From NCBI GenBank assembly GCA_963693055.1, contig OY843751.1, positions 2,400,001 to 2,464,000 on the forward strand: a DNA stretch of 64,000 nt, given 5' to 3'. How positions within the stretch are numbered: the stretch's first letter is position 1; each line of letters opens with the position of its first letter. Below are positions 40,987-62,731 of the stretch, in pieces. The notes under the pieces are model-generated. The model did no database searches. It had not been told where the DNA came from and saw only the letters and a list, made by a program, of their open reading frames with translations. A program made the position numbers and the translations under genes. The DNA comes from a bacterium. GTDB taxonomy: Bacteria; Zhuqueibacterota; Zhuqueibacteria; Residuimicrobiales; Krinioviventaceae.

Positions 40987-41021
40987 ACCCCTGCTGATTT
41001 GAATGATCAGCAGGGGTTTTT
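40987..41021 (+). terminator. Intrinsic terminator
   Basis: acccctgctgatt...gatcagcaggggt followed by a T run. Confidence 0.85.
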
Positions 41022-41255: not shown

Positions 41256-44200
41256 ATGGACAGTACTATGCAAAAAAACTTTTTTTTATTGTACTGCGTT
41301 ATTTTGTTTTTGATTTTTCAGATTTTTGTACTTCCACTACATGCTGCTGTAACAGGAAAAATAAGGGGGCAAATTGTTGATTCAGTATCAGGAATGGCCC
41401 TTCCCGGAGTGAATGTTGTCATTTCACATGTGTGGATAAATGGCCAGGAAGAAGTTTATGATGGAGGCCTGGGTGCAGCAACCAGTATTGATGGTGAGTA
41501 TTTTATTCTCAAAGTCCCACCCGGTATCTATTCTATTACTTCATCAATGATCGGTTATAATACCATTACCAAGCAGCAGGTTCAAGTCAGTATTGACCGA
41601 ACATCAATTGTCGATTTTCAGATGGAAGAGGCTGCTTTGCAAGGCGAAGAAGTAGTTGTTACCGCAGGACGTGACCAGATCCAGGTTGATGTTGCTGCGA
41701 CTGAAAATTATGTCACTGCTGAAGAGTATCAAAATACACCGTTTGCAAACAGAGTTGAAAATGTTATAGGGCTGCAATCCGGTGTAAGTGGCAATATTGT
41801 TGAGGGTCAAATATCTATTCGTGCTGGTGATACTCGTGAGGTGGGCCTTTTGGTGGATGGTATGTCGCTGGTAGATAAAAAGTTCAACCGCCCGGTTTTC
41901 TCTGTGCAACCCGGTGTTGTACAGGAAATAAAGGTAATGCGTAATGGTTTTAATGCTGAATATGGCCAATCACGTTCCGGTATTATTAATGTAATCACCA
42001 AAGATCCTGATGAAAAATATAGATTTTCAATGGACTATCAGTTTACACCCGCTCACAAGCCCCATTATGGCAGAGATAAATATGATAAAGATTATCGATG
42101 GGAATGGAGATTGCTTGACGGCCCAAACGCTTTTATTGGAGATACTTTGTACCTCCCCGATGGCACTCATCAGAATATGAAAATCTGGATGGGTTGGAAC
42201 AAGTATGCTGAAGAATTGCTTTCAGATGATAATCCCGATAATGATCTGACTGCTGACGAAGCATACGAGTTATGGAAATGGCGCCATCGTCCTATGGAAT
42301 ATGGAAATCTCAATGGTCATAATGTTGATTTGTCTTTTTCGGGACCTGTACCTTTTATGCCATGGAGAACCAATTTCCTTGCAGGCGCAAAATATGAATT
42401 CAAGCCGCTTAATTATCCTCAATCTACCGACCATTATGATGAAAAGATGGGTTCATTAAAGATTATTTCAAATCCTTCTCCTAATATTAAACTGACACTA
42501 AATGGTATGTATTCTTCTGTTACTTCGGCAGCTGGAGGCAGGCTGGATGCAACCTGGGCAACAGAAACGTTGATAGACTATGATGGCGTAACCCTGAGAG
42601 ATTATTATCCCTATTATTATCCAGTGATCAATCGTGAAACCAGTTTGATCGGTGCCAAGTTGGTACATACCTTGTCACCAACACTCTATTATGAAACATT
42701 TATCAACTATTTCAATATAGGTTGGAACTTGTCCCGTGCTGATCAATCCAATCCTGCCGATGGGCGCTATTTTCATGGAAGATTATATTATGATCCGCAA
42801 TCAGGTTATATACCACGCTCCTTGGGAGTAGATGATGATGCATCTGATTTTAAAATGGCAGGTATTGACCAAACCTGGGATGATTCATGGAACAAGCGGT
42901 TTGTATATAATTTTGTACTGACAAGCCAGTTCCATCCCGCGCATGAACTTAAATTTGGTGTTAATGGAAATTATGACATTTTACGTGAAAATCGGGTTTA
43001 TTGGCCCAATGAAGATCCTGATAAAGAATTCATTCGTCGATACAAAGTAAAACCTATTGAATTTGCTTCTTTTATTCAAGACAAGATCGAATTTCAGGGT
43101 ATGGTTGCCAATATCGGTTTGCGCTTTGATTATTTCAATACCAATACAGACCGGCCGGATGTAACAGCAATACTCTCTTATGCCAAAGACCGTGATATGT
43201 GGGAGGCAGTCAAGAACAATGAATATCCAATGATGCGGGCAAAACCGAAATATTATCTCAGTCCTCGTGTTGGGATTTCTCATCCCTTGTCAGACAAAAG
43301 TAAGGTGTATTTCAATTATGGCCATTTTGTTCAAACACCTCCCAGTCGTGACCTTTATATCATTACTTTGGATGGTGAGCGCCCCGGTATTCAAATGATG
43401 GGTAATCCTGAACTCAATTTTGAAAAAACAATAGCCTATGAACTTGGTTTTGATATGAGTGTGAAAAGTGAACTGCAATTTCATGTGGGTGCATTTTATA
43501 AAAAGAATAGTAATGTGGCCAATCGAATGACCTCAGCACATCTTGATCAAAGTGTGGTTGTAGATTGGTTTGATGATATAGGTTACGCAGAAATACGTGG
43601 TCTGGAATTAGAATTACGTAAATCAACAGGTCAGTTTTTTACCGGTTGGATAAATTACAATTATATCAAAAAAAGTAATTCAGATCTGGGTGTTCCCGGT
43701 TTGTCTGATAATCCCATTATTACCGATGATCCATCCGTCGGTAGGGATGGTATAATCTGGGGAGTGCCTACTTCAGTGATCCGTGATATAATTCCCAATG
43801 CACGTGGTGTTTTATCATTACATACTCCCGGTGATTGGGGACCCAAATTTAAAGGCTTTTCACTAGTCAGTCAAACCAGTATCAGTTTACAAATGCATTA
43901 TCAAGGTGGTGCTTTAAAAGAACACCCTAAAACGAGTTTCCAGGATATGTACCCTAATGTCCGTTTTCGCGAGTTGTGTAAATTCTGGGCAGACTTGCGT
44001 GTGTCACGCCAGTTTAGAGTAGCTTTTATCAACATGGAATTATATATGGATATAAGTAATATTTTTCACTCTACTTTTCGAAATCCGCCAACAGGTACAA
44101 GTGGAGAAGATTATTATGACGAACTGTGGGAAGCAGGACGTTTAGATCAGGTAGGAACAGACGAGTTGACGAATCCCATGATTCTGCTAACTGAAAATGA

Positions 44201-44258
44201 TGATGTATATTGGGGCAGGGTCAAAATTTTTAATTTTGGATTGCGTATTAATTTATAG
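41256..44258 (+). CDS. TonB-dependent receptor (Oar-like, N-terminal carboxypeptidase-regulatory-like domain)
   Basis: TGKI.G.I.D..SG..LPGVNV, plug GFNAEYGQSRSGIINVITK, SPR.GISHP, GNP.L..EKTI.YELG, C-terminal FGLRINL. Confidence 0.92.
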   Translation: MDSTMQKNFFLLYCVILFLIFQIFVLPLHAAVTGKIRGQIVDSVSGMALPGVNVVISHVWINGQEEVYDGGLGAATSIDGEYFILKVPPGIYSITSSMIGYNTITKQQVQVSIDRTSIVDFQMEEAALQGEEVVVTAGRDQIQVDVAATENYVTAEEYQNTPFANRVENVIGLQSGVSGNIVEGQISIRAGDTREVGLLVDGMSLVDKKFNRPVFSVQPGVVQEIKVMRNGFNAEYGQSRSGIINVITKDPDEKYRFSMDYQFTPAHKPHYGRDKYDKDYRWEWRLLDGPNAFIGDTLYLPDGTHQNMKIWMGWNKYAEELLSDDNPDNDLTADEAYELWKWRHRPMEYGNLNGHNVDLSFSGPVPFMPWRTNFLAGAKYEFKPLNYPQSTDHYDEKMGSLKIISNPSPNIKLTLNGMYSSVTSAAGGRLDATWATETLIDYDGVTLRDYYPYYYPVINRETSLIGAKLVHTLSPTLYYETFINYFNIGWNLSRADQSNPADGRYFHGRLYYDPQSGYIPRSLGVDDDASDFKMAGIDQTWDDSWNKRFVYNFVLTSQFHPAHELKFGVNGNYDILRENRVYWPNEDPDKEFIRRYKVKPIEFASFIQDKIEFQGMVANIGLRFDYFNTNTDRPDVTAILSYAKDRDMWEAVKNNEYPMMRAKPKYYLSPRVGISHPLSDKSKVYFNYGHFVQTPPSRDLYIITLDGERPGIQMMGNPELNFEKTIAYELGFDMSVKSELQFHVGAFYKKNSNVANRMTSAHLDQSVVVDWFDDIGYAEIRGLELELRKSTGQFFTGWINYNYIKKSNSDLGVPGLSDNPIITDDPSVGRDGIIWGVPTSVIRDIIPNARGVLSLHTPGDWGPKFKGFSLVSQTSISLQMHYQGGALKEHPKTSFQDMYPNVRFRELCKFWADLRVSRQFRVAFINMELYMDISNIFHSTFRNPPTGTSGEDYYDELWEAGRLDQVGTDELTNPMILLTENDDVYWGRVKIFNFGLRINL

Positions 44259-44272
44259 CAGAAAGGTCACGA

Positions 44273-46360
44273 ATGAAAACCAGAATTATTGGATTGGTTA
44301 TATTATTTATATGTTTATCTGCTGTCAATTCATACAGTCAAATGAAACACCATCAGATAGGGCGCTTGTGGCAAACCATGTTTGAGGTGGGTACCAGGCC
44401 AAATTATTCACCCTTGTATACGGCAATGAATTATCCCGGTGGCGATTTTTATCTGGGTACTCGAAAAAATATGGACCGTACCGGCCTTTGGATTGGTGTT
44501 AAAGAATGGACAAATAAATTCAACGAATATCAGCCCTATTATGTATCAGAGGGCGGGTATATGAATAATGAAGCTACCGGAGTGGTGTTTCCCATTTATA
44601 ATAAAAAGTATGTGCGCCAGCGCCTGCCGCTTGTATCAATCAATGGTACAGCTGAAAAACGTTATTCGGATTCACGAGACAGTAGCACCAGACGTTCTTC
44701 ACTGGATTCTGATGAGCAAATCGTTACAAAATGGGCTACTGATGTGGGTATTGAAGTCACACGTACCAGTTATGCTTTTGCAAATCCAAGGCACGACAGT
44801 TATATCATTCAGGAATATGTATTTAAAAATACCGGCAATGCAGATAAAGAGGAAAATACAGTTGAATTGCCTAATCAGGTTTTAAAAGATGTATATTTTG
44901 GGTTTTGGAGAACATTTATTCCATCATTGGACGTGGGCCACCAGCAAATGGGTGGCAAACATGATGAATGGTGCCATTATTACGGCAACCAGCCCGGAGA
45001 TTCTCTACGTGGATTCTGGTACGTTTACGATGGTGACAACAATTACAAAATTTTTGATGATACCGGAGATCCGTCTGAATTGAATGGTGAATTTCTGTCT
45101 CCGCAATATCCCTCTTTTGGAGTGCTTTATGCTGACACGGATTACATGACCGAGATTGATGATCCCAATCAGCCGGCAACTGTCAATTTCTGGCCTTATA
45201 GTCAGGTCAATTCTCATGTGAGTGGTGATCCTGATGCTACGCTTTATTCTGATCTTAGCAGCGGTGTTCAGAGTATGGGATCAGACACCCGCGAATTCGG
45301 CAGCCCTGTCGATCCGCAAATTCAACAGCCCCAATTGCTCATGTCATTTGGTCCTTATGAAATCCCTTTTGGCGAAGACATTCGAATTGTTATGTTTGAA
45401 GCTGTTGGAAGTGTGTCACGAAAACAGGCTATGCAAAAAGGCCGTGATTGGTTCGCTGGTAAATTAGAGTTGAATGGTTTGACAGGTGATGATGCAAAGA
45501 ATGCCTTTGTTGCGACAGGCAAAGATTCTTTACACGAAATTGCCAGGCGTGCAGAATGGACGTGGCAAAATGGTATTGAAGCAGTACCTGATGGTCCGGA
45601 ATCTCCCAGTTTAAATATTTCAGCCGGTCCGGCAAAAGTAGAATTGGAATGGTATTATAACACTGATGATTCTTTACCTCCCAAACCGGATGTGGACACA
45701 GGTGAATATGATTTTTCCGGATACCGCGTGTTTCGGGCTGCTGATGACTATAATAATGAATATTACAAGATTTGGGAATGCGGTGGAAATTCGGGAATTG
45801 ATGTTACCAACAAATATACAGACCGAGATGTAGAACGCGGTCAAAGTTATTATTATTATGTAACTGCCTATGATGACGGTTCGCAAAATACCAGCGGACT
45901 GGTTCCCGGTGAATCTGTTGAATCCAGCCATTTCAGTAACCGGAATTTTATCTATGCCGGTGTGCCTTATGCAGGGGCCAGACCCCAACTGGATTCCGTA
46001 TTTGTTGTTCCCAATCCGTTTCATTTTCAGGGGCTTGCATTCGGTGGTACCTGGGATGCTGATTACAAGTTTGATCCCAATACCGGTGGCCGCCCTGAAG
46101 ACAAGCTGTTATTTGTTGGATTACCGGCCAAAGCCACAATTAGGATTTTTACAGGCAGTGGTAATTTGATTAAAACACTTGAACACCCGAATCCTTATAA
46201 CGCTCAATCTGTTTCAGAGTCTGCTGATGAAATGTGGCTGCAGATAACTGATGAATGGCAAACGATCAAAAGTGGTGTTTACTTTTTTCATGTTGAAGGA
46301 TGGGACCAGCAAGGCAATTATATTGGTGAAACCATGGGCAAGTTTATCATTATACGCTAA
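44273..46360 (+). CDS. Secreted protein with FN3-like domain and variant C-terminal sorting domain
   Basis: Sec signal; DFSGYRVFRA..YTD.DV..GQSYYYYVTAYD; C-terminus VVPNPF..F.GLP..ATIRIFT.SG.LIKTL.H..SGVYF..GKFIIIR. Confidence 0.75.
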   Translation: MKTRIIGLVILFICLSAVNSYSQMKHHQIGRLWQTMFEVGTRPNYSPLYTAMNYPGGDFYLGTRKNMDRTGLWIGVKEWTNKFNEYQPYYVSEGGYMNNEATGVVFPIYNKKYVRQRLPLVSINGTAEKRYSDSRDSSTRRSSLDSDEQIVTKWATDVGIEVTRTSYAFANPRHDSYIIQEYVFKNTGNADKEENTVELPNQVLKDVYFGFWRTFIPSLDVGHQQMGGKHDEWCHYYGNQPGDSLRGFWYVYDGDNNYKIFDDTGDPSELNGEFLSPQYPSFGVLYADTDYMTEIDDPNQPATVNFWPYSQVNSHVSGDPDATLYSDLSSGVQSMGSDTREFGSPVDPQIQQPQLLMSFGPYEIPFGEDIRIVMFEAVGSVSRKQAMQKGRDWFAGKLELNGLTGDDAKNAFVATGKDSLHEIARRAEWTWQNGIEAVPDGPESPSLNISAGPAKVELEWYYNTDDSLPPKPDVDTGEYDFSGYRVFRAADDYNNEYYKIWECGGNSGIDVTNKYTDRDVERGQSYYYYVTAYDDGSQNTSGLVPGESVESSHFSNRNFIYAGVPYAGARPQLDSVFVVPNPFHFQGLAFGGTWDADYKFDPNTGGRPEDKLLFVGLPAKATIRIFTGSGNLIKTLEHPNPYNAQSVSESADEMWLQITDEWQTIKSGVYFFHVEGWDQQGNYIGETMGKFIIIR

Positions 46361-46372
46361 CTGGAGTGTTTT

Positions 46373-47410
46373 ATGAAAACCGGTTTTAAAATTGTTTTTA
46401 TTTTTTACATTTTGCTAAATGCTATAACCTGTTTGTATGCCGGGCAAAAAAATGCGGGACAAAGTGGAATGACATATTTGGCAATCAGCATGTGTTCCAG
46501 AGAAAATGCAATGGGAGATGCCGGTACGGCCAGTGTTAAAGGAATTAACGGGTTGTGGCATAATCCTTCTGTTATTGCTGATATTGCCAATTTTGCTGTT
46601 TCTCTTAATCAGGTTGACTGGTTGATTGATACTTATGTTTCGGGTGTTGCTGCTGCTTATGGATTGGGAAACTGGGGTACGGTTGCACTGGATGTAACTT
46701 ATATGGATTGGGGGGATATTATTGGAACAAAACCTGTTGACAGATCTGTTGATCCCAGAGGGTTTCAGATTACCGGCAATATTGAAGTTGAAGATTATGC
46801 CCTGGGTGTTGCCTATGCAAGAAGAATCAACAACAAGTTTGCAATGGGTGTTAAAATAAAACGAGTACATGAAAATCTGGGTAATGCACTATATGTTACC
46901 AGTGAGATTGGTGAGAACGAGGATGGTGATATTGAATATGAAAGAGGCTCGAAAGAATGGGAGTTGAATAACTGGGGTTTTGATTTTGGTACTATCTATG
47001 ACACGGGCTTTAAAGGCCTCTTGTTTGCAATGACTTTGCAGAATTTTTCTCGTGATATGAAATATTATTATGATGAATTTCAACTTCCCATGACTTTAAA
47101 AATGGGACTGGCAATGAAGATCTCTGATATTTTTTTCCCAAACAGTAAGCAATTTTGTGTCAACGCTGCCATAGATGCAAGTACACCCAATGATTATTCT
47201 GAAAGAGTAAATATTGGTTCTGAACTGGTTTACCTTGATCGTTTCGCATTACGCGGTGGATACAAGTTTAATAATGATGTAGAATCCATGACAATGGGCT
47301 TTGGTTTGAATTTTGATTTTTCAGGCGTGAATGCAAGTATAGATTATGCCTATTCAAGTGCAAACTATTTTCAGGATATTAACAGGTTTTCACTCAATTT
47401 TAATTTCTAG
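46373..47410 (+). CDS. PorV/PorQ-family (FadL-like) outer-membrane barrel
   Basis: AGQSG.TYLAI..SRENAMGDA, WHNPS, DFGTIY, LP.T..MG, LRGGY, DYAY, ends in F. Confidence 0.85.
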   Translation: MKTGFKIVFIFYILLNAITCLYAGQKNAGQSGMTYLAISMCSRENAMGDAGTASVKGINGLWHNPSVIADIANFAVSLNQVDWLIDTYVSGVAAAYGLGNWGTVALDVTYMDWGDIIGTKPVDRSVDPRGFQITGNIEVEDYALGVAYARRINNKFAMGVKIKRVHENLGNALYVTSEIGENEDGDIEYERGSKEWELNNWGFDFGTIYDTGFKGLLFAMTLQNFSRDMKYYYDEFQLPMTLKMGLAMKISDIFFPNSKQFCVNAAIDASTPNDYSERVNIGSELVYLDRFALRGGYKFNNDVESMTMGFGLNFDFSGVNASIDYAYSSANYFQDINRFSLNFNF

Positions 47411-47423
47411 GTTGTAAGGATGA

Positions 47424-49015
47424 ATGTTAAATAGAAAAATCCGTCTTACTTTGAAAACATTATTGGTACTTTTTTTTTTACTGCCTGTTCAACTCACTCT
47501 GTAGATCAATTTATATCAATACATGGTAATCGATTTGTCGATTACAAGGGGAACCAGATAATTTTTCATGGAATAAATCTGGTGAACAAGGATAAATCAG
47601 TCAACTATTTAGGAACTGAAGCTGAACATGATTTCCAAATAATGAAATCATGGGGCTTGAATTGTATCAGGTTAGGAATTATTTAGGATGGTTTGGAACC
47701 ACAACCCAGTGTGTATGATGATAAATATCTAGAGGGAATTGACCAACGCATTGCATGGGCAAAACAAAATGGAATGTATGTCATTTTAAATAAGCACCAG
47801 AATTTGTTCAGTGTAAAATTTTCAGATGGTGCGCCTGAATGGGCTACTTTAACTGATAGTAAAGAACACATCCATAATAGTCCTGTATGGAGCGATGCTT
47901 ATAATACCAGCTCTGCTGTACAAACCGCGTTTGATAATTTTTGGAATAATACGCCTGAATCTGATGGTACGGGAATTCAAGACCATTATGCAAAAGCCTG
48001 GCAATATGTTGCCAAACGGTATGCAAACGAAACATCTGTTGTCGGATATGATATTATGAATGAACCGTTTATCGGTTCAAAAATAAACGAAATACAACCG
48101 CTTCTGTTTTTTGAAGGAGCAAAGATTTTTGCTGAACAAGATTCTAAGGAGCATGCTTCCGTTTATAAACTTTAACAAATGTGGATGACAGAGGAGGGAC
48201 GTTATAAAATTTTGCAGCATTTGGCTAATCCCTATGTTTATTCACGTGTAATAGCTCGCACTGAATCCGGTTATCAGGAATTTGAGAAACATACACTGGC
48301 ATCTATGTTTCAAAGAGTTGCCAATGCTATATGCAAAGTAGATCAGAGTCATATTTTGTTTCTAGAGACAACAATTGCTTCCAATATGGGAGTTCGATCT
48401 GGTCTTGAACCCCTTGCGGATGCTTTGGGCAACCGCGATCCATTACAGGCATATGCTCCACATGGATATGACCTTGTAACGGACACAAAATTGGTAGCGC
48501 TTGCAAGCAATGACCGGCTGGATTTGATCTTTGACAGACACTTTGAAGCCTCAAAACGACTACAAATGCCCATGTATGTGGGTGAGTGGGGGGCCTATTA
48601 CATGAATGCAAATGCAAAAACAACAACAATGCATGTTGCCGGATTGTTTGAAAAAATGTTGTGTAGCGACACCTATTGGAGTTATAATAATAATTTACCC
48701 AAGGCTGATTTTTTTGAAGCAATCAGCAGGATTTATCCTGTTCATGTTCCGGGAGTATTACTGTTTTATTCTATTGATCCCGAAACAAATATATTTCATT
48801 GTCGCTGGCTAGACGATACTGATATCAGCGGATCACTCAAGAGATACATCCCATCACGATATATGGTTTCACTTGATCAAATTGAATGCATACCTGACAA
48901 TATGAATATCAGGTTAGAGATAAAAGAGGGCAGTGAAAGCAATTACATTATTGCAAAACCTGCCCGGGATTATTCGGATATTTGTACTATAACATTTCGA
49001 CTTTATACAAAATAA
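47424..49015 (+). pseudogene. GH5 (endoglycoceramidase/cellulase-like) lipoprotein pseudogene
   Basis: ATG 47424 signal peptide is frameshifted at T10 (47470-47479) relative to FTAC..HGINLVNK..RLGII. In-frame TAG 47684-47686 (RLGII*DGLEP) and TAA 48173-48175. Catalytic motifs YDIMNEP and VGEWG remain. Confidence 0.88.
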
Positions 49016-49025
49016 TTGTTGGTTA

Positions 49026-49832
49026 TTATTTTTCCAAAAACTTGATCAAACCTTCAGGATCGTCTGTCTGAATACCATCCGTACCCCAATCCAGTGCTTG
49101 CTGCCAGCATGAGGAATCACTTTCATCAACAATAACAATAGCACCGGCCTTGTGACATGCATCCAAAAATGTTTTTGAATAATATTTCCATACCGATGCA
49201 ACCACATAAGGTTTTAATTCAGTAAGCAGTGTATTCAGGTTCTTTTCAGGGCCCGGATCAGGCATAATAATGCATTCAGAACATAATTTTTTGACTTGTT
49301 TTAGCTCTTGAGGATCAGCATACCACACAATATCCTTTTCCATGTCCCATTTTTTAATTACCGATAGAGTTTGATTAATATCTGCGTTTTTAAAATCCAG
49401 ATATATGCCTATTTTACCTTTACACAATTCCAATATCTCATCAAAAGTAGGAATTCTCTCATTCGTCCATTTCGCATCAATGCGACTCCCAACATCCATA
49501 GCTTTCAATTCTTCAAGCGTAAACTCGGATACTAATCCTGTAGTACCGTCTGTTACATATGCATCGATTTTACTATTATGAACACTAACCAAAGCACTGT
49601 CACGGGTTGTTCGAAGATCAATTTCAACAAAGTCAGCACCCAGATCAATAGCTTTTTGGTAGGCCGCCAGCGTATTCTCCGGAATTCCTATATGAGCTCC
49701 CCGATGAGCAACCACATATACTTTACCATTTTGGGGTGGCTTTAGAAACGTTTCTGATTGGTTTTTACAGCCCAATACTACCATTGTTGCAACTAGAATT
49801 ATTAGAAATTTAATTCGGTTCATCAGTTTCAT
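49026..49832 (-). CDS. Glycerophosphodiester phosphodiesterase-family lipoprotein
   Basis: Lipobox VLGC; VAHRG..PENTL.AY..A, VEIDLR, IPTF.E, DGIQTDDP. Confidence 0.92.
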   Translation of the reverse strand: MKLMNRIKFLIILVATMVVLGCKNQSETFLKPPQNGKVYVVAHRGAHIGIPENTLAAYQKAIDLGADFVEIDLRTTRDSALVSVHNSKIDAYVTDGTTGLVSEFTLEELKAMDVGSRIDAKWTNERIPTFDEILELCKGKIGIYLDFKNADINQTLSVIKKWDMEKDIVWYADPQELKQVKKLCSECIIMPDPGPEKNLNTLLTELKPYVVASVWKYYSKTFLDACHKAGAIVIVDESDSSCWQQALDWGTDGIQTDDPEGLIKFLEK

Positions 49833-53525: not shown

Positions 53526-53717
53526 CAGATCTCCATATGTGATTTGTTAAATTTAAGCATTTTGATTAACACTCTTTTACAATTGAAAATTCATGTTAGG
53601 GAAAGAGTTTATTGAAAATAATGAAAAAATTATAAAATTGCAGCTTATTGCAAAAAAAAATGTAAATTTTGTCATTTTTTTCTTTGATTTGTTTGAAAAT
53701 GGAATATATTTATAAAA

Positions 53718-53729
53718 ACAAACGTTTGC
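53718..53729. promoter_or_regulatory. LacI-type operator, site 1
   Basis: ACAAACGTTTGC; perfect 10-bp palindrome CAAACGTTTG with central CG. Confidence 0.65.
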
Positions 53730-53918
53730 CTTTTTAAGGTTCAGATATTGTAAAAGAATGTAAAAATTAGATTTATTTGTTTTTAAAATACGAAAAATGG
53801 CACAAAAAATAAATAAAAAAACAAGTTTTGGTTTGAATTGCTGTTAATTTATATGAAAAATATTTAAAATCTGCTTAATAATTTCTTAATCATGCATGTT
53901 TACATTTAATTATAAAAT

Positions 53919-53930
53919 GCAAACGATTGC
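53919..53930. promoter_or_regulatory. LacI-type operator, site 2
   Basis: GCAAACGATTGC, 15 nt before the LacI start codon. Confidence 0.7.
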
Positions 53931-53945
53931 CCCTTAAGGAACCTT

Positions 53946-54959
53946 ATGGCAACACTTAAAGATGTAGCAAAATTAGCCAAAGTCCACCCGTCAACAGTTT
54001 CTCGTGTATTACGTGATATTGATAGTTTATCAATAACTACCAAAACACGTGAACGAATCCTTAATGCAGTAGAAGAATTGAAATATCGACCAGATCAGAT
54101 GGCCCGGGCATTAAAGATGGGTAAAAGTTTTTCAATCGGTCTGATCATACCAGATATATCAAATCCATTTTTTGCAGAACTTGTCAAAATTATAGAAAAT
54201 GAATGTACCAAGGCTGGCTTTATTCTTCTTGTTTCCATTTCTAATGAAGATCAGGAAAAAGAGATTCAGCATGTTAACAATTTGTTAGGCAGAGGTATAG
54301 ATGGATTAATTCTGGCTCCAGTGCAGAATAGTTATAATCATATTTTAGAATTAAAAAGCAAGAACTTTCCTTTTTTGTTGATCGATCGGTATTTTGAAAC
54401 ATTTGAAACCAATGCAATAATTAGTGACAATGAAGAATCAGCATTCAAGGCTGTTCAATATCTTGTTAAGCTCGGACACAATCGTATTGGTTTTATCAGT
54501 GGTCGTCCAGAAATTTATACAATTCGGAAAAGGTTGGAGGGATTTAAAAAAGCTCTCAAAGAATTCAATTTAGAAGATAATAAAGAATTTATGTGGGGGG
54601 CTGGCCATACTTTTCAGGATGGGTACGAAGCAACACAAAATTTGCTGGCTTTAAATAAACCGCCAACAGCCTTGTTGATATCTGGCAACCTCATAACTTT
54701 AGGCGCTTACAAAGCTTTGTTGGAAAAAGGATTGCATATACCGAATGATATCTCTATAATAGCATTTTCTGATAATGTTATTTCTCAATATTTGTCTACA
54801 CCTTTAACAACAATTTCACACCCCCTTGAAGAAATGGGTAAACGTGCATTTCAATTATTGTTTCAGAACATAAATACCGAAGTAAGGAATTCTTATACTA
54901 AAATTACGGTTTGTACTAATTTCATCATAAGAGAATCAACAGGTAAAAGAACAAGTTGA
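53946..54959 (+). CDS. LacI-family transcriptional regulator
   Basis: TLKDVAKLAKVHPSTVSRVL HTH, Y.P...AR.L hinge, IPDISNPFF, LGH.RI, IP.DISI, PLTTI. Confidence 0.96.
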   Translation: MATLKDVAKLAKVHPSTVSRVLRDIDSLSITTKTRERILNAVEELKYRPDQMARALKMGKSFSIGLIIPDISNPFFAELVKIIENECTKAGFILLVSISNEDQEKEIQHVNNLLGRGIDGLILAPVQNSYNHILELKSKNFPFLLIDRYFETFETNAIISDNEESAFKAVQYLVKLGHNRIGFISGRPEIYTIRKRLEGFKKALKEFNLEDNKEFMWGAGHTFQDGYEATQNLLALNKPPTALLISGNLITLGAYKALLEKGLHIPNDISIIAFSDNVISQYLSTPLTTISHPLEEMGKRAFQLLFQNINTEVRNSYTKITVCTNFIIRESTGKRTS

Positions 54960-55034
54960 GTTTTAATATAGTAATTAGATAAAAATAATAATATATAATC
55001 AAATGAGATGTATTTCTTGCTCTTGGAGAAAATT

Positions 55035-57965
55035 ATGACAAAAATTCCTAAAAATTGGTTGTATTTATTCATCATCCTTATTTTGCTGGCAACGCAAAGT
55101 GGTTTTGCCGCTGTTACCGGTAAAATTAGCGGAAAGGTAGTTGACGGTGAATCAGGTGATCCGTTACCTGGTGCAAATGTGCTGATAGATGGCACAACAC
55201 GTGGTGCCGCTACAGATGTTGATGGTAACTATTTAATAATTAACCTGGCTCCTGGTACCTATTCGCTAAGGGTTAATATGATTGGTTATAATACGGTACA
55301 GATTCAAGATGTTCGTGTTTACACTGACCGCATAACCAAACAGAATTGTGAATTGACAATGGGTGTTCTTGAAGGGCAGGAAGTTGTTATTGTTGCCGGA
55401 AGAGAGCCGATTGAATTTGATAGAACCAATACCGCAGCTTATGTGAATCAGGAAGAAATTGAAGCCTTGCCGGTAACAACTTTTAGTGAAGTGATTGCTT
55501 TGCAGTCGGGTGTTGTTGCTGATGCTGGTGGAAGTCTTCACTTTCGTGGTGGTCGTTCCCGTGAAGTTGCATACATGATTGATGGTATTCCCGTAACCAA
55601 CAACTTTAGTCAGGGTGGTGGTTCAAACGTTGCTATAGAAAATAACTTTATTAAAGAACTTCAGGTTATTACCGGTACATTTAATGCAGAATATGGTTCT
55701 GCCCAATCTGGTATCATTAATGTTGTAACCAAAGTTCCTGAAGACAAGTTTGATTTTAGTTTTGATGCTATGACTGGTGGATATTATTCACCGGATCAAC
55801 CTCAATATATTGGTCTTGATTCATATGATCTGTTAAATACTCAGGAATACAAGTTTTCAGTTTCAGGTCCGTTACCTTTTCCAAAAAGACTTGGTAAACT
55901 CGGCTTTTTTGTAAATGGTCGTATTGTTAATGATGACGGTTATTTAAATGGTGAAAGACGTTATTCACCAGAAGATGGTTGGGAAATTGAAGTTTTTCGT
56001 GAATGGTATAATGCAACTTTTGATCCCAAAGATCCGCTTTTGATTCCAATTCCGGATTCATTGCATACTGGTGATGGCTCAATAGTTTCTATCGATTGGG
56101 AAAAGAAATACAGCATTAATACAAAACTTGTTTATCAACCCATTCCATCTATGACATTGTCATACAACTTGTTTACAAGTGATGGTGAGGGTAAATCTTA
56201 TTCACATTCCTGGCGTTATACTCCAGATGCGTTGCCATTCTGGTATGATGATAAAATAACGCACATGTTGGTTTTTACACATTCTCCTCTAGAAAATCTT
56301 TATTATAATTTGCGTTATTCAATGCAAAAAAGTGAAACAAAAGCTTATACATATGAAAATCCTAATGACCCCAGATATCAAGCAACTTCTATTAATGCCT
56401 GGGATCCGGGTTCAATCACTGGTTATGACTTTGGCGGTATCTATAGCTGGGATCGTAATTTCCAGGAACGCACAATGAATCTGATCAATGGTGATGTAAC
56501 CTGGCAACTTAATAAAGTAATGGAAATTAAAACAGGTTTTGAATATAAAGACCATGATCTTCATTATAGAAACGCTCCAATGAAACCCAAGTTTGGTTAT
56601 GAAACTCAGCAATTCCCATTCACCCGTAGTGAAATTGCGGGTCTTGAATTGCCTTATGAATTCTTTCGCGATTCTACCAGAGCTTATGATTATGGAACTA
56701 TAAAACTTCGTCAGGCAAGTCCTGACAGTTCATTGGATGATCTTTACTATGTGAATTATAATCGTTATCCTATCGAAGCTGCAACTTTTGCTCAAACCAC
56801 GTTACATATGGGTGAAATTATTTTAAATGCAGGTTTGCGATATGATTATTTTGCACCAGAAGATCGTTGGGCACCAGATTATACAATTATCTATCCTGAA
56901 CTTGTTGGTAAGGATTATATTGAAACTGAAAGTGGTGAAAGAATTCAATACTATGAACAAGCCGAATCCAAGTGGCAATTGAGTCCGCGTTTTGGTTTGT
57001 CATTCCCCATTTCAGAAAAAGGTGCTATGCGTCTTTCTTATGGACATTTCTTTCAGACACCCAGTTTTGAAAAAATGTATCAGAACCCAGTATTACCGGA
57101 TTACAATGAATTTAGTATTATGGGAACCAGTATTGGTAACCCCAATCTTAAACCTGAAAAAACAATCCAATACGAGTTGGGTTTGCAGCAAGAGCTTTCT
57201 CCCGGTTTGTCAATGGAGTTGACAGTTTTCTATAAAGATTTTCGTGATCTTTTGGGTATAGAAATTTTGACATTGAGTAATGCAACCACATTCTATCGTT
57301 ATATCAACAAAGAGTATGGTGATTCAAAAGGTGTTTCATTTGCTTTAAATTATAGCTCAATGGACAACAAGGTTGTTGCCGGTGTTGATTATTCATATAT
57401 GACGGCTAAAGGTACATCTTCCAGTCCTGAAGCTGCCCGTGATGTTGCGATTTTATCCGGTTCTTCCAAAGGTGCATATTCACTTGCTTCTCGTAGAATT
57501 GATTACCTGAATTGGGACCAAACTCACAGTTTAAATGCAACAGTCAGTGTGCAACCTGTTAAAAAACTTTACTTGAGCGTTGTCGGTCAATTGGGTTCTG
57601 GTTTACCTTATTCGCCTTCTACACTAGATCCTAATATTGAGATTCCAAGTGGTTGGTGGGACAATGCAGACCGTAAGCCTGTTAGATGGGCTGTTGATTT
57701 CAAGATCAATAAAACTGTTACTTTGATGAATTATAATTTTTCAGTGTACATGAATATTTATAATATCTTTAATCACTTGAATGAAAATTCTGTTAACAGC
57801 ATAACCGGGCGTGCGGGCCCAGATGCATACCTGCCAGAAATTGCACGTAAACGTTATTACAGACTTGAACAATTGGGTGAATTCACTCAGGAGGAAGCAG
57901 ACTATAATCCTACTGAATATTCACGTCCACGCTTAATTCAATTTGGACTTTCATTTGCATTATAG
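55035..57965 (+). CDS. TonB-dependent receptor (Oar-like)
   Basis: TGKISG.V.D..SG.PLPGANV, RGGR..EV.Y.IDG, GTFNAEYG.AQSGIINVVTK, SPR.G.SFP, GNPNLKPEKT.QYELG, C-terminal PR.IQFGLSFAL. Confidence 0.93.
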   Translation: MTKIPKNWLYLFIILILLATQSGFAAVTGKISGKVVDGESGDPLPGANVLIDGTTRGAATDVDGNYLIINLAPGTYSLRVNMIGYNTVQIQDVRVYTDRITKQNCELTMGVLEGQEVVIVAGREPIEFDRTNTAAYVNQEEIEALPVTTFSEVIALQSGVVADAGGSLHFRGGRSREVAYMIDGIPVTNNFSQGGGSNVAIENNFIKELQVITGTFNAEYGSAQSGIINVVTKVPEDKFDFSFDAMTGGYYSPDQPQYIGLDSYDLLNTQEYKFSVSGPLPFPKRLGKLGFFVNGRIVNDDGYLNGERRYSPEDGWEIEVFREWYNATFDPKDPLLIPIPDSLHTGDGSIVSIDWEKKYSINTKLVYQPIPSMTLSYNLFTSDGEGKSYSHSWRYTPDALPFWYDDKITHMLVFTHSPLENLYYNLRYSMQKSETKAYTYENPNDPRYQATSINAWDPGSITGYDFGGIYSWDRNFQERTMNLINGDVTWQLNKVMEIKTGFEYKDHDLHYRNAPMKPKFGYETQQFPFTRSEIAGLELPYEFFRDSTRAYDYGTIKLRQASPDSSLDDLYYVNYNRYPIEAATFAQTTLHMGEIILNAGLRYDYFAPEDRWAPDYTIIYPELVGKDYIETESGERIQYYEQAESKWQLSPRFGLSFPISEKGAMRLSYGHFFQTPSFEKMYQNPVLPDYNEFSIMGTSIGNPNLKPEKTIQYELGLQQELSPGLSMELTVFYKDFRDLLGIEILTLSNATTFYRYINKEYGDSKGVSFALNYSSMDNKVVAGVDYSYMTAKGTSSSPEAARDVAILSGSSKGAYSLASRRIDYLNWDQTHSLNATVSVQPVKKLYLSVVGQLGSGLPYSPSTLDPNIEIPSGWWDNADRKPVRWAVDFKINKTVTLMNYNFSVYMNIYNIFNHLNENSVNSITGRAGPDAYLPEIARKRYYRLEQLGEFTQEEADYNPTEYSRPRLIQFGLSFAL

Positions 57966-57985
57966 AAAAATGGGTATTTAAGATT

Positions 57986-59053
57986 ATGAAAAAAATACAT
58001 TTATTATTCAGCTTTATTGTAATCTTTTACTGTAGCCAGTCTGTATTTTCTCAAATTGATTTGAGTGATGCCCAATACAGTTCTGATATTAGTAGAAGTG
58101 GTACTTCTGCAGGTGCAATGCTTGAAATTGGTATTGGCGCCCGTGCAGAAGCTATGGGAGGTGCATTCGTAGGTGTTGCTGATGATCCTTCCGCTCTTTA
58201 CTGGAATCCTGCAGGAATTATTAAAGTAAATACAATTTCTGTTCAGGCGACAAAAACCGAATGGTTTGTAGGCACAACTTTTAATTCACTGGACTTGGTA
58301 GTGCCAGTTAAAATGGTTAATTCTGCACTTGGAGTTCACATTGCCATGTTAGACTATGGCTCTAATCCTGTTCGTACAATATTTCGTCCAGAAGGAAATG
58401 GTGAAACATATTCGGCTTCAGATCTTGTTGCCGGACTTTACTGGGCGCTGGGCATTACAGACCGTGTTAACGTTGGTTTGGGTTTGAAATATTTTCAACA
58501 GAATATCTGGCATGTTACAGGTACCAATGTTGCTGTTGATTTGTCAATATTGTTTGATACACCGGTAAAAGGTTTGACACTTGGTGGAGCTTTGAGCAAC
58601 CTTGGACCTGAATTTTCACTGAACGGTCGAGATTTAACTAGAGTTTATGATATTGATGGCCGTAAAGATACATATTATAATAATGATAATGTAGCAATCC
58701 AGCTTGCTACAGAAGCTTATCCTTTACCACTTTTATTTAGATTTGGTATTGCTTATACATGGCAGCTTACATCCAGAAATTCTTTGCTTGTTGCGTCTAA
58801 TATAAACCATCCAAGTAATAATGTTGAAACTGTGGATGTAGGCGCAGAATTGAATTTGCTTGATCTTGGTTTTTTAAGAGCTGGATATCAATCCTTGTTT
58901 GATGATAAATCTGTTTCAGGGCTTTCTCTGGGAGCTGGTTTGAAATACAGGGTACTTGGTTCAGCTACTTTGACTTTTGATTATGCATGGACAGACTGGA
59001 CTGTTCTTGCGTCAACCAACAGATTTACTGTTGGTATCAGTACAGCTTATTAA
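57986..59053 (+). CDS. PorV/PorQ-family outer-membrane barrel
   Basis: GTS....LEIGIGARAEAMGGAFV..ADD..ALYWNPAG, LP..FRFG.AY, LRAGY, DYAW, ends in Y. Confidence 0.9.
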   Translation: MKKIHLLFSFIVIFYCSQSVFSQIDLSDAQYSSDISRSGTSAGAMLEIGIGARAEAMGGAFVGVADDPSALYWNPAGIIKVNTISVQATKTEWFVGTTFNSLDLVVPVKMVNSALGVHIAMLDYGSNPVRTIFRPEGNGETYSASDLVAGLYWALGITDRVNVGLGLKYFQQNIWHVTGTNVAVDLSILFDTPVKGLTLGGALSNLGPEFSLNGRDLTRVYDIDGRKDTYYNNDNVAIQLATEAYPLPLLFRFGIAYTWQLTSRNSLLVASNINHPSNNVETVDVGAELNLLDLGFLRAGYQSLFDDKSVSGLSLGAGLKYRVLGSATLTFDYAWTDWTVLASTNRFTVGISTAY

Positions 59054-59092
59054 TTAAGGTTTTGTTTCTAAAATTTAGTTAAAGGATGATTT

Positions 59093-62000
59093 ATGAAAAA
59101 GCTTGTTAATATATGTGCATTGATCATTTTATCAGCAAGTTCGCTTTTTGCGCAGGCTGCAGGATCACAATTCGATCTGCATCCTATGCACTGGGCCCGT
59201 TTTTGGGCAAGGGGACTTTTTGATCGTAACTTGATTTATTGCCCTGTTTGGAATATTGGAAATGTAACAGACTCTGGCGTTGACCCGGGTGATGATATGC
59301 AATGGCCTGGTAGTGAAGGCCTCAGTTTTGTTGATGCTGCTGTTTTTTATATAGGTGCATTGGTTTATGACATGTCTGCTTATGAAGGACAGCAAGTTCC
59401 TGAAACCTGGGATGGTAGTGATATTTATATTGTGAGCGATGCTTATAATACTCATGTCTCTCAAGCTGTTCCATGGGCACAATTATCAAAAGATAAAACT
59501 CACCAGCAAAAATGGGCACCCATTCCTGGATTTTTTAATGATGGTGCTTATGGCTATATTTATGGTATAAATGAAGATACTGATGGTGATGGTGAATTGT
59601 CTCCTGCGGAAGATATTAATTTGAATGGTATTTTGGATTATAATCTGGAGCCACCTGAAAGTATTTTGAAAAGCATGGCTATCAGTACCGATAAACGTAC
59701 CTGGCCTGAATACTGGCCTGGTGGTACATATGTTGGTGATGAGCGTGAGTTTTTTGGTAGACCCCCAAGAACAGTTGAAGCAGGTGAAAGAAAAGGCAAG
59801 TGGAATGGTGAATTTAAAGCAGGAACCATTTCTGATCAGGAAACATTGTATTGGATGGATGATCATGAAAATGACCATTGGAATGATTACAAACAGGGTC
59901 GTTACTGGCCAATGAAGAATTCTGATGGAACTCCAGATACAACACCTTGGGCTGATGGTGGTATTGCTGGTGCCGGTGTTGAAGTTGAAGCCAGAACTTA
60001 TGCATGGTTTCACCCCTTAGCTGAAGACTTGCTGGTTTCTGTTTATCGAGTTCGAAATTATAGTGATTATACTCTGAAACGCGTTGTTACCGGTATGTGG
60101 GCAAATGCCAATATTGCAGGAAAAGGTGATTATAACCTTGCCAGTTATATTATAGCTGATTTTGATTATGAAGGCTCAGGTGGTCGTCTTGACTTTGATA
60201 TTTTGTATCAATGGCACCAGTTCCCGGATCAACTTTCTACATATAAAAAAGTTGGTACTTTTGGATTTGCATTTCTTGAAAGTCCCGGTATCCCTTATAA
60301 TGGTTTGGATGATGACGCTGATGGTCTTGTAGATGAAGCTATGGATGATGGTATTGATAATGATGGTGACTGGTTACCTTATGCTGATATAGGTATAGAT
60401 AAAAAAGGCCCAGGTGATGAAGGTTATGTAGGTCCCGATGGTGATGGAACTGAAAATAATGGAAGATGGGATACTGAAGATGCAAACCTGAATGGTGCTT
60501 TGGATCCTGGTGAAGATACTAATAAGAATGACAAACTTGATTTTGAACCAATTCGTAACGACCGTGGAACTGATGGAATTGGTCCTGATGAAAATGGCTG
60601 GCCAGGTCCTGATACTGATGGCACTGAAGCCAATGGCGCTATGGATCTTGGTGAGCCCAATTTTGACAAAACTGATATCGATGAAGCTGACCAGGCTGGT
60701 TTGAAACATGTTTATGTTTATGAGAACAATAAAGATCTTAAAGATGATAAAGCCTTTTGGGAAAAATATCTTGCTAAAGATGATGTAGATATTGAAGAAA
60801 CAGATGAAGATATCGTTTTTACTTTTGGTGCTCGTAATGTTCAATTAGATATTGATGTTTGGAGACGCTTTACTATTGCAATGATTATGGGTGAAGATGA
60901 AGCTGATGCCATTCGTAATAAAGCAACCATGCAGAATATCTATGATGAAAATTATCAGTTCCTGACTCCTCCATTACAACCTACTTTGGTATCTAATACT
61001 ACAAATAGAAAAGTACAATTGTATTGGGATACAGATGCTGAAGCATCAAAAGATCCATTTTTTGGTGAAGACTTTAATGGCTACCGTCTTTACAAAAGTA
61101 CCGATCCTAAATTCCTTGATGTAAAAACTATTACAGATGCTTTTGGTAATATCCTGTTGTTTGAACCCCTGGAAATTTGGGACAAGGATGATGGTTTGAT
61201 GGGCGTTCACCCAATTCCATTCCCCAACTTGGGTGTCCATTATGACATGGGTAATGACAGTGGTTTAAAACATGCTTATACCGATACTGTAGTTGAGAAT
61301 GGTAGAACTTATTACTATGCGTTGACAGCAATTGATGCTGGTAATGATGATGATTTTTATGAAAGAAAACTTGTTACTGAAGATTATCCTATGCAGGCTA
61401 TGCCTAGTGAATCACCTTTCAATATTACAGTAAACAAGCTGGGTGAAGTTGTGTATAGAGATCGAAATACTGCCGTTGTTATTCCTACTGAACCGGCTGC
61501 CGGATTTACTGAACCCCATATTGATTCAACCTTGATTAAACACAATTCAGGTTGGGCACGTGGTGGAAAAATGAATATTGAAGTTTTTAATAAAAATCAT
61601 GCAAACCTGGGAAATGTTTATGAACTCCAGTTTGAAGATGATCACTGGCTTGATAGCCTCACCAACAAGTTTGAGTGGGGTGGAACGACAGGTATACGTT
61701 GTTTGAATGTAACAACCGGTGATACAATGTTTGATTTTCAGTATGATACACCTTACTATTTCAAAGAAGAAGCTTATAAGGAAATTGAGCAAGGCTTTTT
61801 TGAAGGTGTTCACTATGATCTAAGTTTTCCGATTGATACGGATGTAAGATATCATGGTATTGAAATTGTTAAAACTAATGCAGATGGTCGCAAAACTAAT
61901 GAATGGAAACGTTGGGCAACTGATACAGAGTCTAATCTTCGTGTTGAAGAAATAGATCTCGACAATTCAGATGCTACCATTGCATTGCCTTTTGATTTTG

Positions 62001-62731
62001 AAATTCGGGTTGAAGAAGATATGGGTGCTGATACATCTATTGCTATTCCACCATTGATTAAGGCTTATCCTCTTAATTTTACTACCTGGAATGTTACTGA
62101 TCCAAACAATCCTATCCAGATGGACGTTGTTGTTCGTTATGATAAAGATTCGCGTCTGGAATTACCTCAGGAAATGTTTGGACAACTTTGGGACAGCACG
62201 CGTGTAATCTTAAAGCTGCCTAATAAAAAAGAAACAGGTTGGTTGTCTTCTTGGACTGTAGAATTTTATAAAAACCGGTTTGATTCTTTAAAACCTGTTA
62301 TTGCACCTGCTCCTGGTGATATTTACAGGTTTAAAACGACACGTAACCCGTCTCGTCATGACCGTTTTCAATTTACAATTGATGGTGGTACATGGGATGA
62401 AGATAAAGCAAAAATTGAAATGCGTGATATCTATGTAGTACCTGATCCTTATGTAGTATCAAGTAGTTACGAGTCTATATATGAACTTGCAGGTTACTCG
62501 CAAAGACGTGTTGATTTTGTGAATTTACCGCCACAATGTACAATTAAAATATTTACAGCCAGTGGTAAGCTAGTGAGAACACTGGATCACAATGAAGCAA
62601 ATGACTTTGGTAGACATTCCTGGGATTTAACAACAGAGGATGGACCTGAGGTTGCCTTTGGAATGTACTTTTTTGTAGTTGAATCAAAAGCACTTGGAAC
62701 AACACGTGGTAAATTTGCGATTATCAAGTAA
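59093..62731 (+). CDS. Large secreted protein with acidic Ca-binding-like repeats, FN3-like domain and variant C-terminal sorting domain
   Basis: Sec signal; DxDxDG repeats; DFNGYRLYKS..YTD..V.NG.TYYYA.TA.D; C-terminus VVPDPY..FVNLP..CTIKIFT.SG.LVRTL.H..W..GMYF..GKFAIIK. Confidence 0.78.
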   Translation: MKKLVNICALIILSASSLFAQAAGSQFDLHPMHWARFWARGLFDRNLIYCPVWNIGNVTDSGVDPGDDMQWPGSEGLSFVDAAVFYIGALVYDMSAYEGQQVPETWDGSDIYIVSDAYNTHVSQAVPWAQLSKDKTHQQKWAPIPGFFNDGAYGYIYGINEDTDGDGELSPAEDINLNGILDYNLEPPESILKSMAISTDKRTWPEYWPGGTYVGDEREFFGRPPRTVEAGERKGKWNGEFKAGTISDQETLYWMDDHENDHWNDYKQGRYWPMKNSDGTPDTTPWADGGIAGAGVEVEARTYAWFHPLAEDLLVSVYRVRNYSDYTLKRVVTGMWANANIAGKGDYNLASYIIADFDYEGSGGRLDFDILYQWHQFPDQLSTYKKVGTFGFAFLESPGIPYNGLDDDADGLVDEAMDDGIDNDGDWLPYADIGIDKKGPGDEGYVGPDGDGTENNGRWDTEDANLNGALDPGEDTNKNDKLDFEPIRNDRGTDGIGPDENGWPGPDTDGTEANGAMDLGEPNFDKTDIDEADQAGLKHVYVYENNKDLKDDKAFWEKYLAKDDVDIEETDEDIVFTFGARNVQLDIDVWRRFTIAMIMGEDEADAIRNKATMQNIYDENYQFLTPPLQPTLVSNTTNRKVQLYWDTDAEASKDPFFGEDFNGYRLYKSTDPKFLDVKTITDAFGNILLFEPLEIWDKDDGLMGVHPIPFPNLGVHYDMGNDSGLKHAYTDTVVENGRTYYYALTAIDAGNDDDFYERKLVTEDYPMQAMPSESPFNITVNKLGEVVYRDRNTAVVIPTEPAAGFTEPHIDSTLIKHNSGWARGGKMNIEVFNKNHANLGNVYELQFEDDHWLDSLTNKFEWGGTTGIRCLNVTTGDTMFDFQYDTPYYFKEEAYKEIEQGFFEGVHYDLSFPIDTDVRYHGIEIVKTNADGRKTNEWKRWATDTESNLRVEEIDLDNSDATIALPFDFEIRVEEDMGADTSIAIPPLIKAYPLNFTTWNVTDPNNPIQMDVVVRYDKDSRLELPQEMFGQLWDSTRVILKLPNKKETGWLSSWTVEFYKNRFDSLKPVIAPAPGDIYRFKTTRNPSRHDRFQFTIDGGTWDEDKAKIEMRDIYVVPDPYVVSSSYESIYELAGYSQRRVDFVNLPPQCTIKIFTASGKLVRTLDHNEANDFGRHSWDLTTEDGPEVAFGMYFFVVESKALGTTRGKFAIIK

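Follow-up and report, generated by a model that had tools for sequence, protein, structure and literature searches.

Two compact three-gene modules lie within the 64,000-nucleotide stretch of bacterial DNA that was analysed here (referred to, at its full length, as the window). Each module encodes a TonB-dependent receptor (T), a secreted passenger protein (P) and a barrel of the PorV/PorQ family (V), which together we call the triad. The six open reading frames (ORFs) were all found where the original prediction, made from the letters alone, had placed them. The intergenic gaps in the two modules are 14, 12, 20 and 39 bp, and the T2 frame contains an ATG at 55035 that GGAG precedes closely. 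Coordinates are positions within the window, and all listed features are on the + strand.

41256..44258, +, T1, TonB-dependent receptor of the triad clade (1000 amino acids (aa); CarboxypepD_reg, plug, barrel with long loops)
44273..46360, +, P1, passenger of the short class (695 aa; signal peptide without lipobox, predicted beta-supersandwich, Fn3, PorZ/PorU-like tail)
44342..45580, +, P1 N-domain, residues 24-436 (beta-supersandwich by prediction, with linker helices)
45986..46357, +, P1 C-terminal tail, type IX secretion system (T9SS) type, triad subtype (from tail profiles)
46373..47410, +, V1, PorV/PorQ-family barrel of the triad clade (345 aa; NF033709, 169 bits)
55035..57965, +, T2, triad-clade TonB-dependent receptor (reading frame open from 55008)
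57986..59053, +, V2, PorV/PorQ-family barrel of the triad clade (355 aa; NF033709, 163 bits)
59093..62731, +, P2, passenger of the long class (1212 aa; N-domain with acidic inserts, Fn3, extra domain, triad tail)
61355..62407, +, P2 extra region, residues 755-1105 (confidently predicted fold, mostly beta; predicted local distance difference test (pLDDT) 91.2)
62417..62728, +, P2 C-terminal T9SS-type tail, triad subtype (from tail profiles)

The modules had been described as a duplication, and eight motifs had been quoted from the two passengers. All eight were present in the translations, the paired motifs share columns of an alignment of 12 paralogues, and BLASTP joined P1 and P2 through the tail (E = 5e-13) and the Fn3 part (E = 8e-5). 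Shared descent was upheld, but a recent local duplication was ruled out by the identity between P1 and P2, which is merely 21, 29 and 35% over the N-domain, Fn3 and tail, respectively. The nearest paralogue of P1 (63% identity) is located ~1.9 Mb away in the genome. The window modules are old, distant members of a set of 12 loci.

The genome, a single contig of 6.5 Mb that is 100% complete, encodes 12 passengers, all located in loci with a receptor and a barrel; ten loci are arranged T-P-V, one T-V-P and one P-x-x-T-V. Because the trio recurs at 12 loci of the genome, the window trios are not a product of chance. Named homologues come from KSB1, Calditrichota and Ignavibacteria. In the P-x-x-T-V variant (L005, L136, L138), the genes between passenger and receptor encode a DUF5689 protein with a type A T9SS tail and a 500-aa protein, and in this genome NHL and cytochrome c assembly genes lie downstream of it.

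Both T1 and T2 contain CarboxypepD_reg and Plug domains, and T2 additionally matched the TonB barrel family. Scores against the SusC/RagA model TIGR04056 were 54.3 bits for T1 and 89.7 bits for T2, below the cut-off of 368.25. The triad receptors fell into one clade of 14 among the 54 receptors of the genome, and 12 of these 14 were accompanied by a passenger and a barrel. Receptor length and passenger length were uncorrelated (rho -0.06, 112 triads).

The absence of a SusD-like gene from the modules, noted in the original prediction, was borne out, as none of the six genes matched a SusD family. No SusD partner was found in trans either: PF07980, PF14322 and PF12771 had no match in the genome, with a positive Bacteroides control each time, and PF12741 was not searched genome-wide. 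The passengers themselves were excluded as SusD proteins or lipoproteins by the lack of a SusD family match, the mostly-beta model of P1 and the lack of a lipobox; a simple lipobox consensus pattern matched 1 of 112 passengers and neither P1 nor P2. Six pairs of a receptor and a 550-to-990-aa protein at other places in the genome were considered as hidden SusC/SusD pairs and rejected, since these proteins have ordinary type A tails and no SusD match. A second SusD-less layout was also observed (L016, L017, L018, L019, L020, L022), in which a clade of seven TonB receptors has no barrel gene and each receptor is directly followed by a partner with an ordinary type A T9SS tail. Five of these partners (540-580 aa) are homologous to one another and have no Pfam match beyond the tail.

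P1 had no Pfam or NCBIfam match, and P2 had weak tail matches only. An AlphaFold model of P1, built with 114 sequences (pLDDT 91.6), was mostly beta and consisted of three parts, the N-domain, Fn3 and the tail. Residues 24-436 were predicted to resemble the beta-supersandwich (galactose-mutarotase-like) that opens GH94, GH116, GH15 and GH65 enzymes (structural Z 17-19). The best structural match was cellodextrin phosphorylase (5nz7_A residues 141-449; Z 18.9, root-mean-square deviation (rmsd) 4.0, 272 aligned). The passenger differs from these enzymes in that sequence identity is 7-11% and that Fn3 and the tail replace the (alpha/alpha)6 catalytic barrel, which the enzymes place after the supersandwich and which is absent from the P1 model. 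After the signal peptide, the model contains just three helices of at least four residues, followed by Fn3 and the tail. A search of the ESM Atlas with the passenger N-domain returned unnamed clusters only. Residues 755-1105 of P2, which also has acidic inserts in its N-domain, had no clear fold match (best FlgL, Z 6.3, rmsd 3.3, 94 aligned), which is not proof of a new fold.

The tail was assessed with a profile trained on the 12 paralogues. Passengers from outside the genome, whose tails were untrained but preselected as passengers, scored 65-112 bits, whereas the other 133 of 145 matches in the genome scored at most 54, the next being 38; because of this separation, the passenger tail is considered a distinct subtype. 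In a search of PDB sequences, the profile returned three matches with E no higher than 10: PorZ (E = 0.0064), PorU (E = 0.041) and an unrelated decarboxylase (E = 0.21). The PorU model matched 11 of the 12 tails, TIGR04183 matched ten (E up to 0.1) and the PorZ model nine. The PorU model was the only match of the P1 tail, and full-length P1 and P2 fell short of TIGR04183 at E 0.01. With the type B models, P2 scored 18 bits against PF13585 (cut-off 27) and TIGR04131 matched 1 of 12 tails (E = 0.086). PorZ and PorU are the two cargos whose tails are known to be kept uncleaved and bound to PorQ and PorV, respectively (PMC10202324, PMC10947112). The original prediction had taken PorV as a shuttle for its precedent; the anchoring PorQ-PorZ and PorV-PorU pairs are nearer. 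Core genes of a T9SS are present, in line with the predicted export route: the genome encodes SprA (906 bits) and two PorU above cut-off, along with at least 150 type A T9SS tails (of 264 candidates, 150 were scored). GldM and GldN, by contrast, had no match in a search without a positive control.

V1 and V2 passed the cut-off of 90 for the PorV/PorQ family model NF033709, with 169.2 and 163.2 bits, and fell below the equivalog cut-offs for PorV (71 and 41 bits versus 250) and PorQ (82 and 72 bits versus 220; NF033710, NF033711). V1 also matched PorV of known structure (6h3i_F, E = 1.4e-5). The best PorV candidate of the genome is located elsewhere (242.6 bits), and a PorQ-like gene is also present. 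The PorP/SprF family PF11751 had no match in a genome search without a positive control. The 12 triad barrels formed one side of a branch (support 95/92) that separates them from 16 other PorV-like paralogues, including the housekeeping PorV. Passengers that share one barrel have tails that are 71-85% identical at 64-72% N-domain identity, compared with a background mean of 67-73%, although these pairs are few and related. Other PorV-family paralogues (L013, L024, L107, L108, L109, L112) come directly after a large cargo of their own: two C25 proteins that resemble PorU, a metallophosphoesterase of 2188 aa that has CarboxypepD repeats, a DUF11 protein and a 3157-aa protein. Two paralogues carry a fused OmpA domain, and one carries fused tetratricopeptide repeats (TPRs).

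Conservation of the triad outside this genome was assessed at loci from GTDB, metagenomes and relatives, sets that overlap and are not independent, with partner counts resting on a six-frame search. The expectation of the original prediction that the triad would be conserved elsewhere was confirmed. The P1 family led to 79 GTDB loci, 19 of them truncated; a receptor and a barrel were present at 55 of the remaining 60, and one further locus had the N-domain only. From metagenomes, 79 loci were fetched, of which 34 were truncated or too short, and 44 of the other 45 had both partners (one had neither). Both partners were present at 18 of 20 and 39 of 40 loci picked from relatives. The record titles named KSB1, Calditrichota, Ignavibacteria, Marinimicrobia/Fidelibacterota, Latescibacterota, Krumholzibacteriota and Eisenbacteria, and gene order varied. 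Tandem arrays of two to four passengers with 64-91% identical N-domains were observed at L041, L054, L149, L250, L252, L253, L086 and L087, mostly behind one receptor and one barrel. SprA was found in 49 of 50 passenger-bearing genomes tested (50 chosen from 63). The locus of the exception, L064, equals L065 from another assembly in length, gene sizes and scores, and may have been misbinned.

The gene trees suggested for comparison were congruent. Among the 12 paralogues, the distances of receptor, N-domain, tail and barrel agreed with rho 0.66-0.86, and 0 of 2000 shuffles were as high. Over 92 triads, rho was 0.80 for receptor barrel and N-domain, 0.69 for V and tail, and 0.81 for receptor and V. 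Partial correlations were weak and not domain-specific (receptor barrel and N-domain 0.33, V and N-domain 0.30, V and tail 0.25, receptor barrel and tail 0.11). A covariation analysis of 75 paired triads, amounting to 58 effective sequences across 1871 columns, yielded noise, the top pairs joining periplasmic and surface parts.

Passengers and SusD were distributed differently between genomes. Passengers were found in 31 of 31 relatives, with 6-26 matches per genome (matches, not copy numbers), and the same 31 contained PF07980 in one genome and PF12771 in two. In a sample of 121 genomes from the phylum of genome G056, with kinship uncorrected so that the contrast is one between lineages, passengers were present in 54 and SusD in 64. 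A passenger was present in 1 of 21 genomes with at least six SusD versus 53 of 100 others, and in 0 of 10 with at least 16 SusD. SusCD is described in phyla of the Fibrobacterota-Chlorobiota-Bacteroidota (FCB) group other than Chlorobiota (PMC12611786).

The neighbours of the triads included genes for glycan use. Two features of the window adjoin the receptors:

40987..41017, +, terminator-like hairpin separating T1 from the GH2 gene (13 pairs followed by a run of T; match to consensus only)
53946..54959, +, regulator of the LacI family, immediately upstream of T2 (from family search)

Promoter and terminator counts equalled shuffled expectation. For 4 of the 12 triad receptors a LacI regulator lay no more than three ORFs away, versus 0 of 42 other receptors (background 1.1%). 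Three copies outside the window head glycan loci, with GH13 and LacI, with PL10 and GH28, and with GH28, GH43 and LacI, respectively; one copy lies with LacI and a sugar-binding hybrid sensor, and one with a sulfatase. Recurrent neighbours in other genomes were GH92, GH57, GH20, a GH29-type fucosidase, GHL10, CBM11, ROK and sodium-solute symporters, as well as ExbB, C25 and GWxTD proteins. The GH2 gene upstream of module 1 was rejected as proof of substrate, because the hairpin sets it off from T1 and GH2 is adjacent in three clustered loci only. Downstream of module 1, a GH5 gene (47486-49015) has in-frame stops at 47684 and 48173; in a genome of the same genus (G001), it is a single 536-aa frame with 84% identity. 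Module 2 is surrounded by LacI, divergent phosphoesterases and downstream prolyl isomerases. Module 2 is followed, across window positions 62679-64000 and locus L014, by two prolyl-isomerase-like proteins and two large C10 peptidase/beta-helix T9SS cargos. Positions 33645-36647 encode an LVIVD-repeat protein of 1000 aa whose T9SS tail is of the ordinary type A.

Several known systems resemble the triad in part. Like SusC/SusD (RagA/RagB), it places a TonB-dependent receptor gene beside the gene of a dedicated surface partner, in many paralogues, several of them next to carbohydrate-active enzymes (CAZymes) or sugar regulators (for SusD, PMC13543919). Its partner is, however, a supersandwich and Fn3 protein with a T9SS-type tail and no lipobox, whereas SusD is a TPR-helical lipoprotein; moreover, the triad receptor falls under the SusC/RagA cut-off and a third gene, the barrel, belongs to the unit. 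As in the PorZ-PorQ and PorU-PorV pairs of Porphyromonas gingivalis, a cargo with a PorZ/PorU-like tail is found beside a PorV/PorQ-family barrel, but the known pairs are single-copy parts of the secretion machine, while the triad comprises 12 paralogous pairs, each with a TonB receptor, the cargo body is unrelated, and the barrels score below both equivalog cut-offs. Cargos with a type B C-terminal domain are likewise encoded together with a private PorP/SprF barrel for surface anchoring (PMC10202324); the triad barrel belongs instead to the PorV/PorQ family, the tail falls under the type B cut-offs, and the known pairs have no TonB receptor. The likeness to BamA-BamG-BamH is architectural only, a large barrel with a FadL-family side barrel that holds a surface protein above it (PMC12611786, PMC12578637), but BamH is a lipoprotein and that complex assembles membrane proteins. 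By these features, the triad is neither a SusC/SusD pair, three defining features of which are missing, nor a type B/SprF pair; by analogy, it would resemble a fusion of SusC/SusD logic with the PorZ-PorQ anchor.

The three genes are inherited as a single outer-membrane unit, which we consider probably serves to capture nutrients, in many cases glycans, and to import them. The passenger would cross the inner membrane by Sec and then pass through SprA, whereupon the cognate barrel would receive it via the PorZ/PorU-type tail; the tail would escape PorU cleavage, and the passenger would remain on the surface. The PorZ/PorU-like tail and the dedicated barrel clade fit such retention on a cognate barrel, and the precedent of PorZ-PorQ makes this export route, the retention of the tail and its binding to the barrel the most credible part of the proposal, one in which we place good confidence. 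The Fn3 hinge may then set the supersandwich at the mouth of the receptor, where it would bind substrate beside or over the TonB-dependent receptor, as SusD does in Bacteroidia. Binding of substrate and direct contact with the receptor as a lid are a plausible hypothesis, held tentatively.

Several observations weigh against this reading. The glycan-locus setting claimed in the original prediction is clear at the three copies named above and does not extend to all: among 61 neighbours scanned, a CAZyme was found at 4 of 12 loci, a CAZyme or LacI at six and neither at five. Similarly, the barrel that had been called private belongs to a dedicated clade, but is not strictly one-to-one, as at several loci a single barrel and receptor go with two or three passengers in tandem. 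Two of the 14 receptors of the triad clade lack partners in cis, the passenger is accompanied by neither receptor nor barrel at 4 of the 60 untruncated GTDB loci, and one conserved locus type has two genes between passenger and receptor. Congruence of the trees is inheritance as a unit, which is expected from an operon alone, and is not binding or function. The supersandwich is not specific to sugar capture, because aldose epimerases and some lyases use the same fold for catalysis, and part of the passenger N-domain occurs in two S8 peptidases of the genome. The matches of the tail profile to PorZ and PorU are weak, and neither GldM nor GldN was matched in this genome or four others, again in a search without a positive control. 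Some SusD was present in 32 of 54 passenger-bearing genomes of the phylum sample and in 18 of 50 of another set, mostly one to five, and the SusD contrast is no proof of function because it was drawn across related genomes.

The two S8 peptidases (L106:10653-14678 and L106:14716-18795) have ordinary type A tails and a stretch of 60-90 residues in common with the N-domain of the passenger. On the opposite strand, at a distance of a few genes, is an orphan triad-clade receptor.

Among the alternatives, the best placed, though we regard it as unlikely, is that the passenger, tethered to the barrel, is an enzyme of the cell surface or else a loose, SusE-like binder of glycans, concentrating substrate close to the receptor but forming no lid. 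The supersandwich is common to mutarotases, GH174 and lyase domains, tandem arrays supply two or three passengers per receptor, and the 25 closest orthologues share many invariant His, Asp, Glu, Arg and Trp residues. Over the 12 paralogues, however, only Asp, Asn and Trp positions are kept in the N-domain, with no His or Glu, which argues weakly against one shared catalytic site. The modelled passenger also lacks an (alpha/alpha)6 catalytic barrel, and at most loci it is inherited one-to-one with the receptor, a closer tie than accessory proteins usually have.

A role in secretion or in the envelope is distinctly improbable. A PorF-like receptor, PorZ-like cargo and PorQ-like barrel would then move a glycolipid or glycan, or a T9SS without the PorLM motor would be supplied with TonB energy by the receptor; the low probability covers both forms. 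That the tail is nearest PorZ and PorU, that PorF is a TonB-receptor-like T9SS component (PMC12704123), that no GldM or GldN match was obtained (no positive control) and that some copies lie beside housekeeping or glycosyltransferase genes would all suit such a role. The 6-26 matches per relative genome and the diverse CAZyme and LacI neighbours are better fitted by substrate-specific uptake, at least 150 ordinary T9SS cargos do without such a unit, and the window genes passed no PorF or PorZ model.

It is just as improbable that the barrel acts as a transporter of the FadL kind or a side adaptor of the BamG kind and that the passenger travels via the housekeeping PorV to be cleaved or released, as might be read from the FadL-family side adaptors of BamA-BamG-BamH (PMC12611786, PMC12578637), the higher tree agreement of receptor and barrel (0.81) than of tail and barrel (0.69) and the existence of orphan passengers, since the tail subtype is restricted to triad passengers in the genome, other PorV-family paralogues also adjoin their own large cargo, such as the two C25 proteins, and passengers that share a barrel have somewhat more similar tails than background (few, related pairs).

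Under the preferred reading of a nutrient-importing unit, a bolder possibility, about which we are guarded, is that much of the FCB group outside Bacteroidia (KSB1, Calditrichota, Ignavibacteria, Marinimicrobia/Fidelibacterota, Latescibacterota and Krumholzibacteriota) uses a second type of lidded importer, in which a T9SS-exported beta-supersandwich lid is held by its uncleaved tail on a private barrel of the PorV/PorQ type, itself docked next to the receptor. The lids might be interchangeable in tandem arrays, and the whole might be a counterpart of SusC/SusD that is free of a lipid anchor and invisible to predictors of polysaccharide utilization loci (PULs); to this extension we give the same guarded standing.

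The triad is a real, widespread and apparently undescribed outer-membrane module. No description of it was found in the open-access literature, subscription papers and supplements being outside this scope. By term search, the available text of a 2026 review of glycoside transporters held no mention of T9SS, type IX or PorV (PMC13543919), and that of the Caldithrix abyssi genome paper held none of type IX or secretion (PMC5317091). Prediction of PULs relies on susC/susD pairs (PMC13543919), and because of this, glycan uptake in SusD-poor FCB lineages of sediment and deep water is largely invisible. A three-gene marker, matched 6-26 times per genome in all 31 relatives, would make such loci predictable. 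How T9SS cargo escapes PorU cleavage is a question left open by a review of the system (PMC10202324), and the triads, if the proposal is true, would provide a large natural series of tail-barrel pairs for its study. The proposal, if true, would also account for the abundance of PorV-family paralogues in these genomes and tie the T9SS directly to the import of nutrients.

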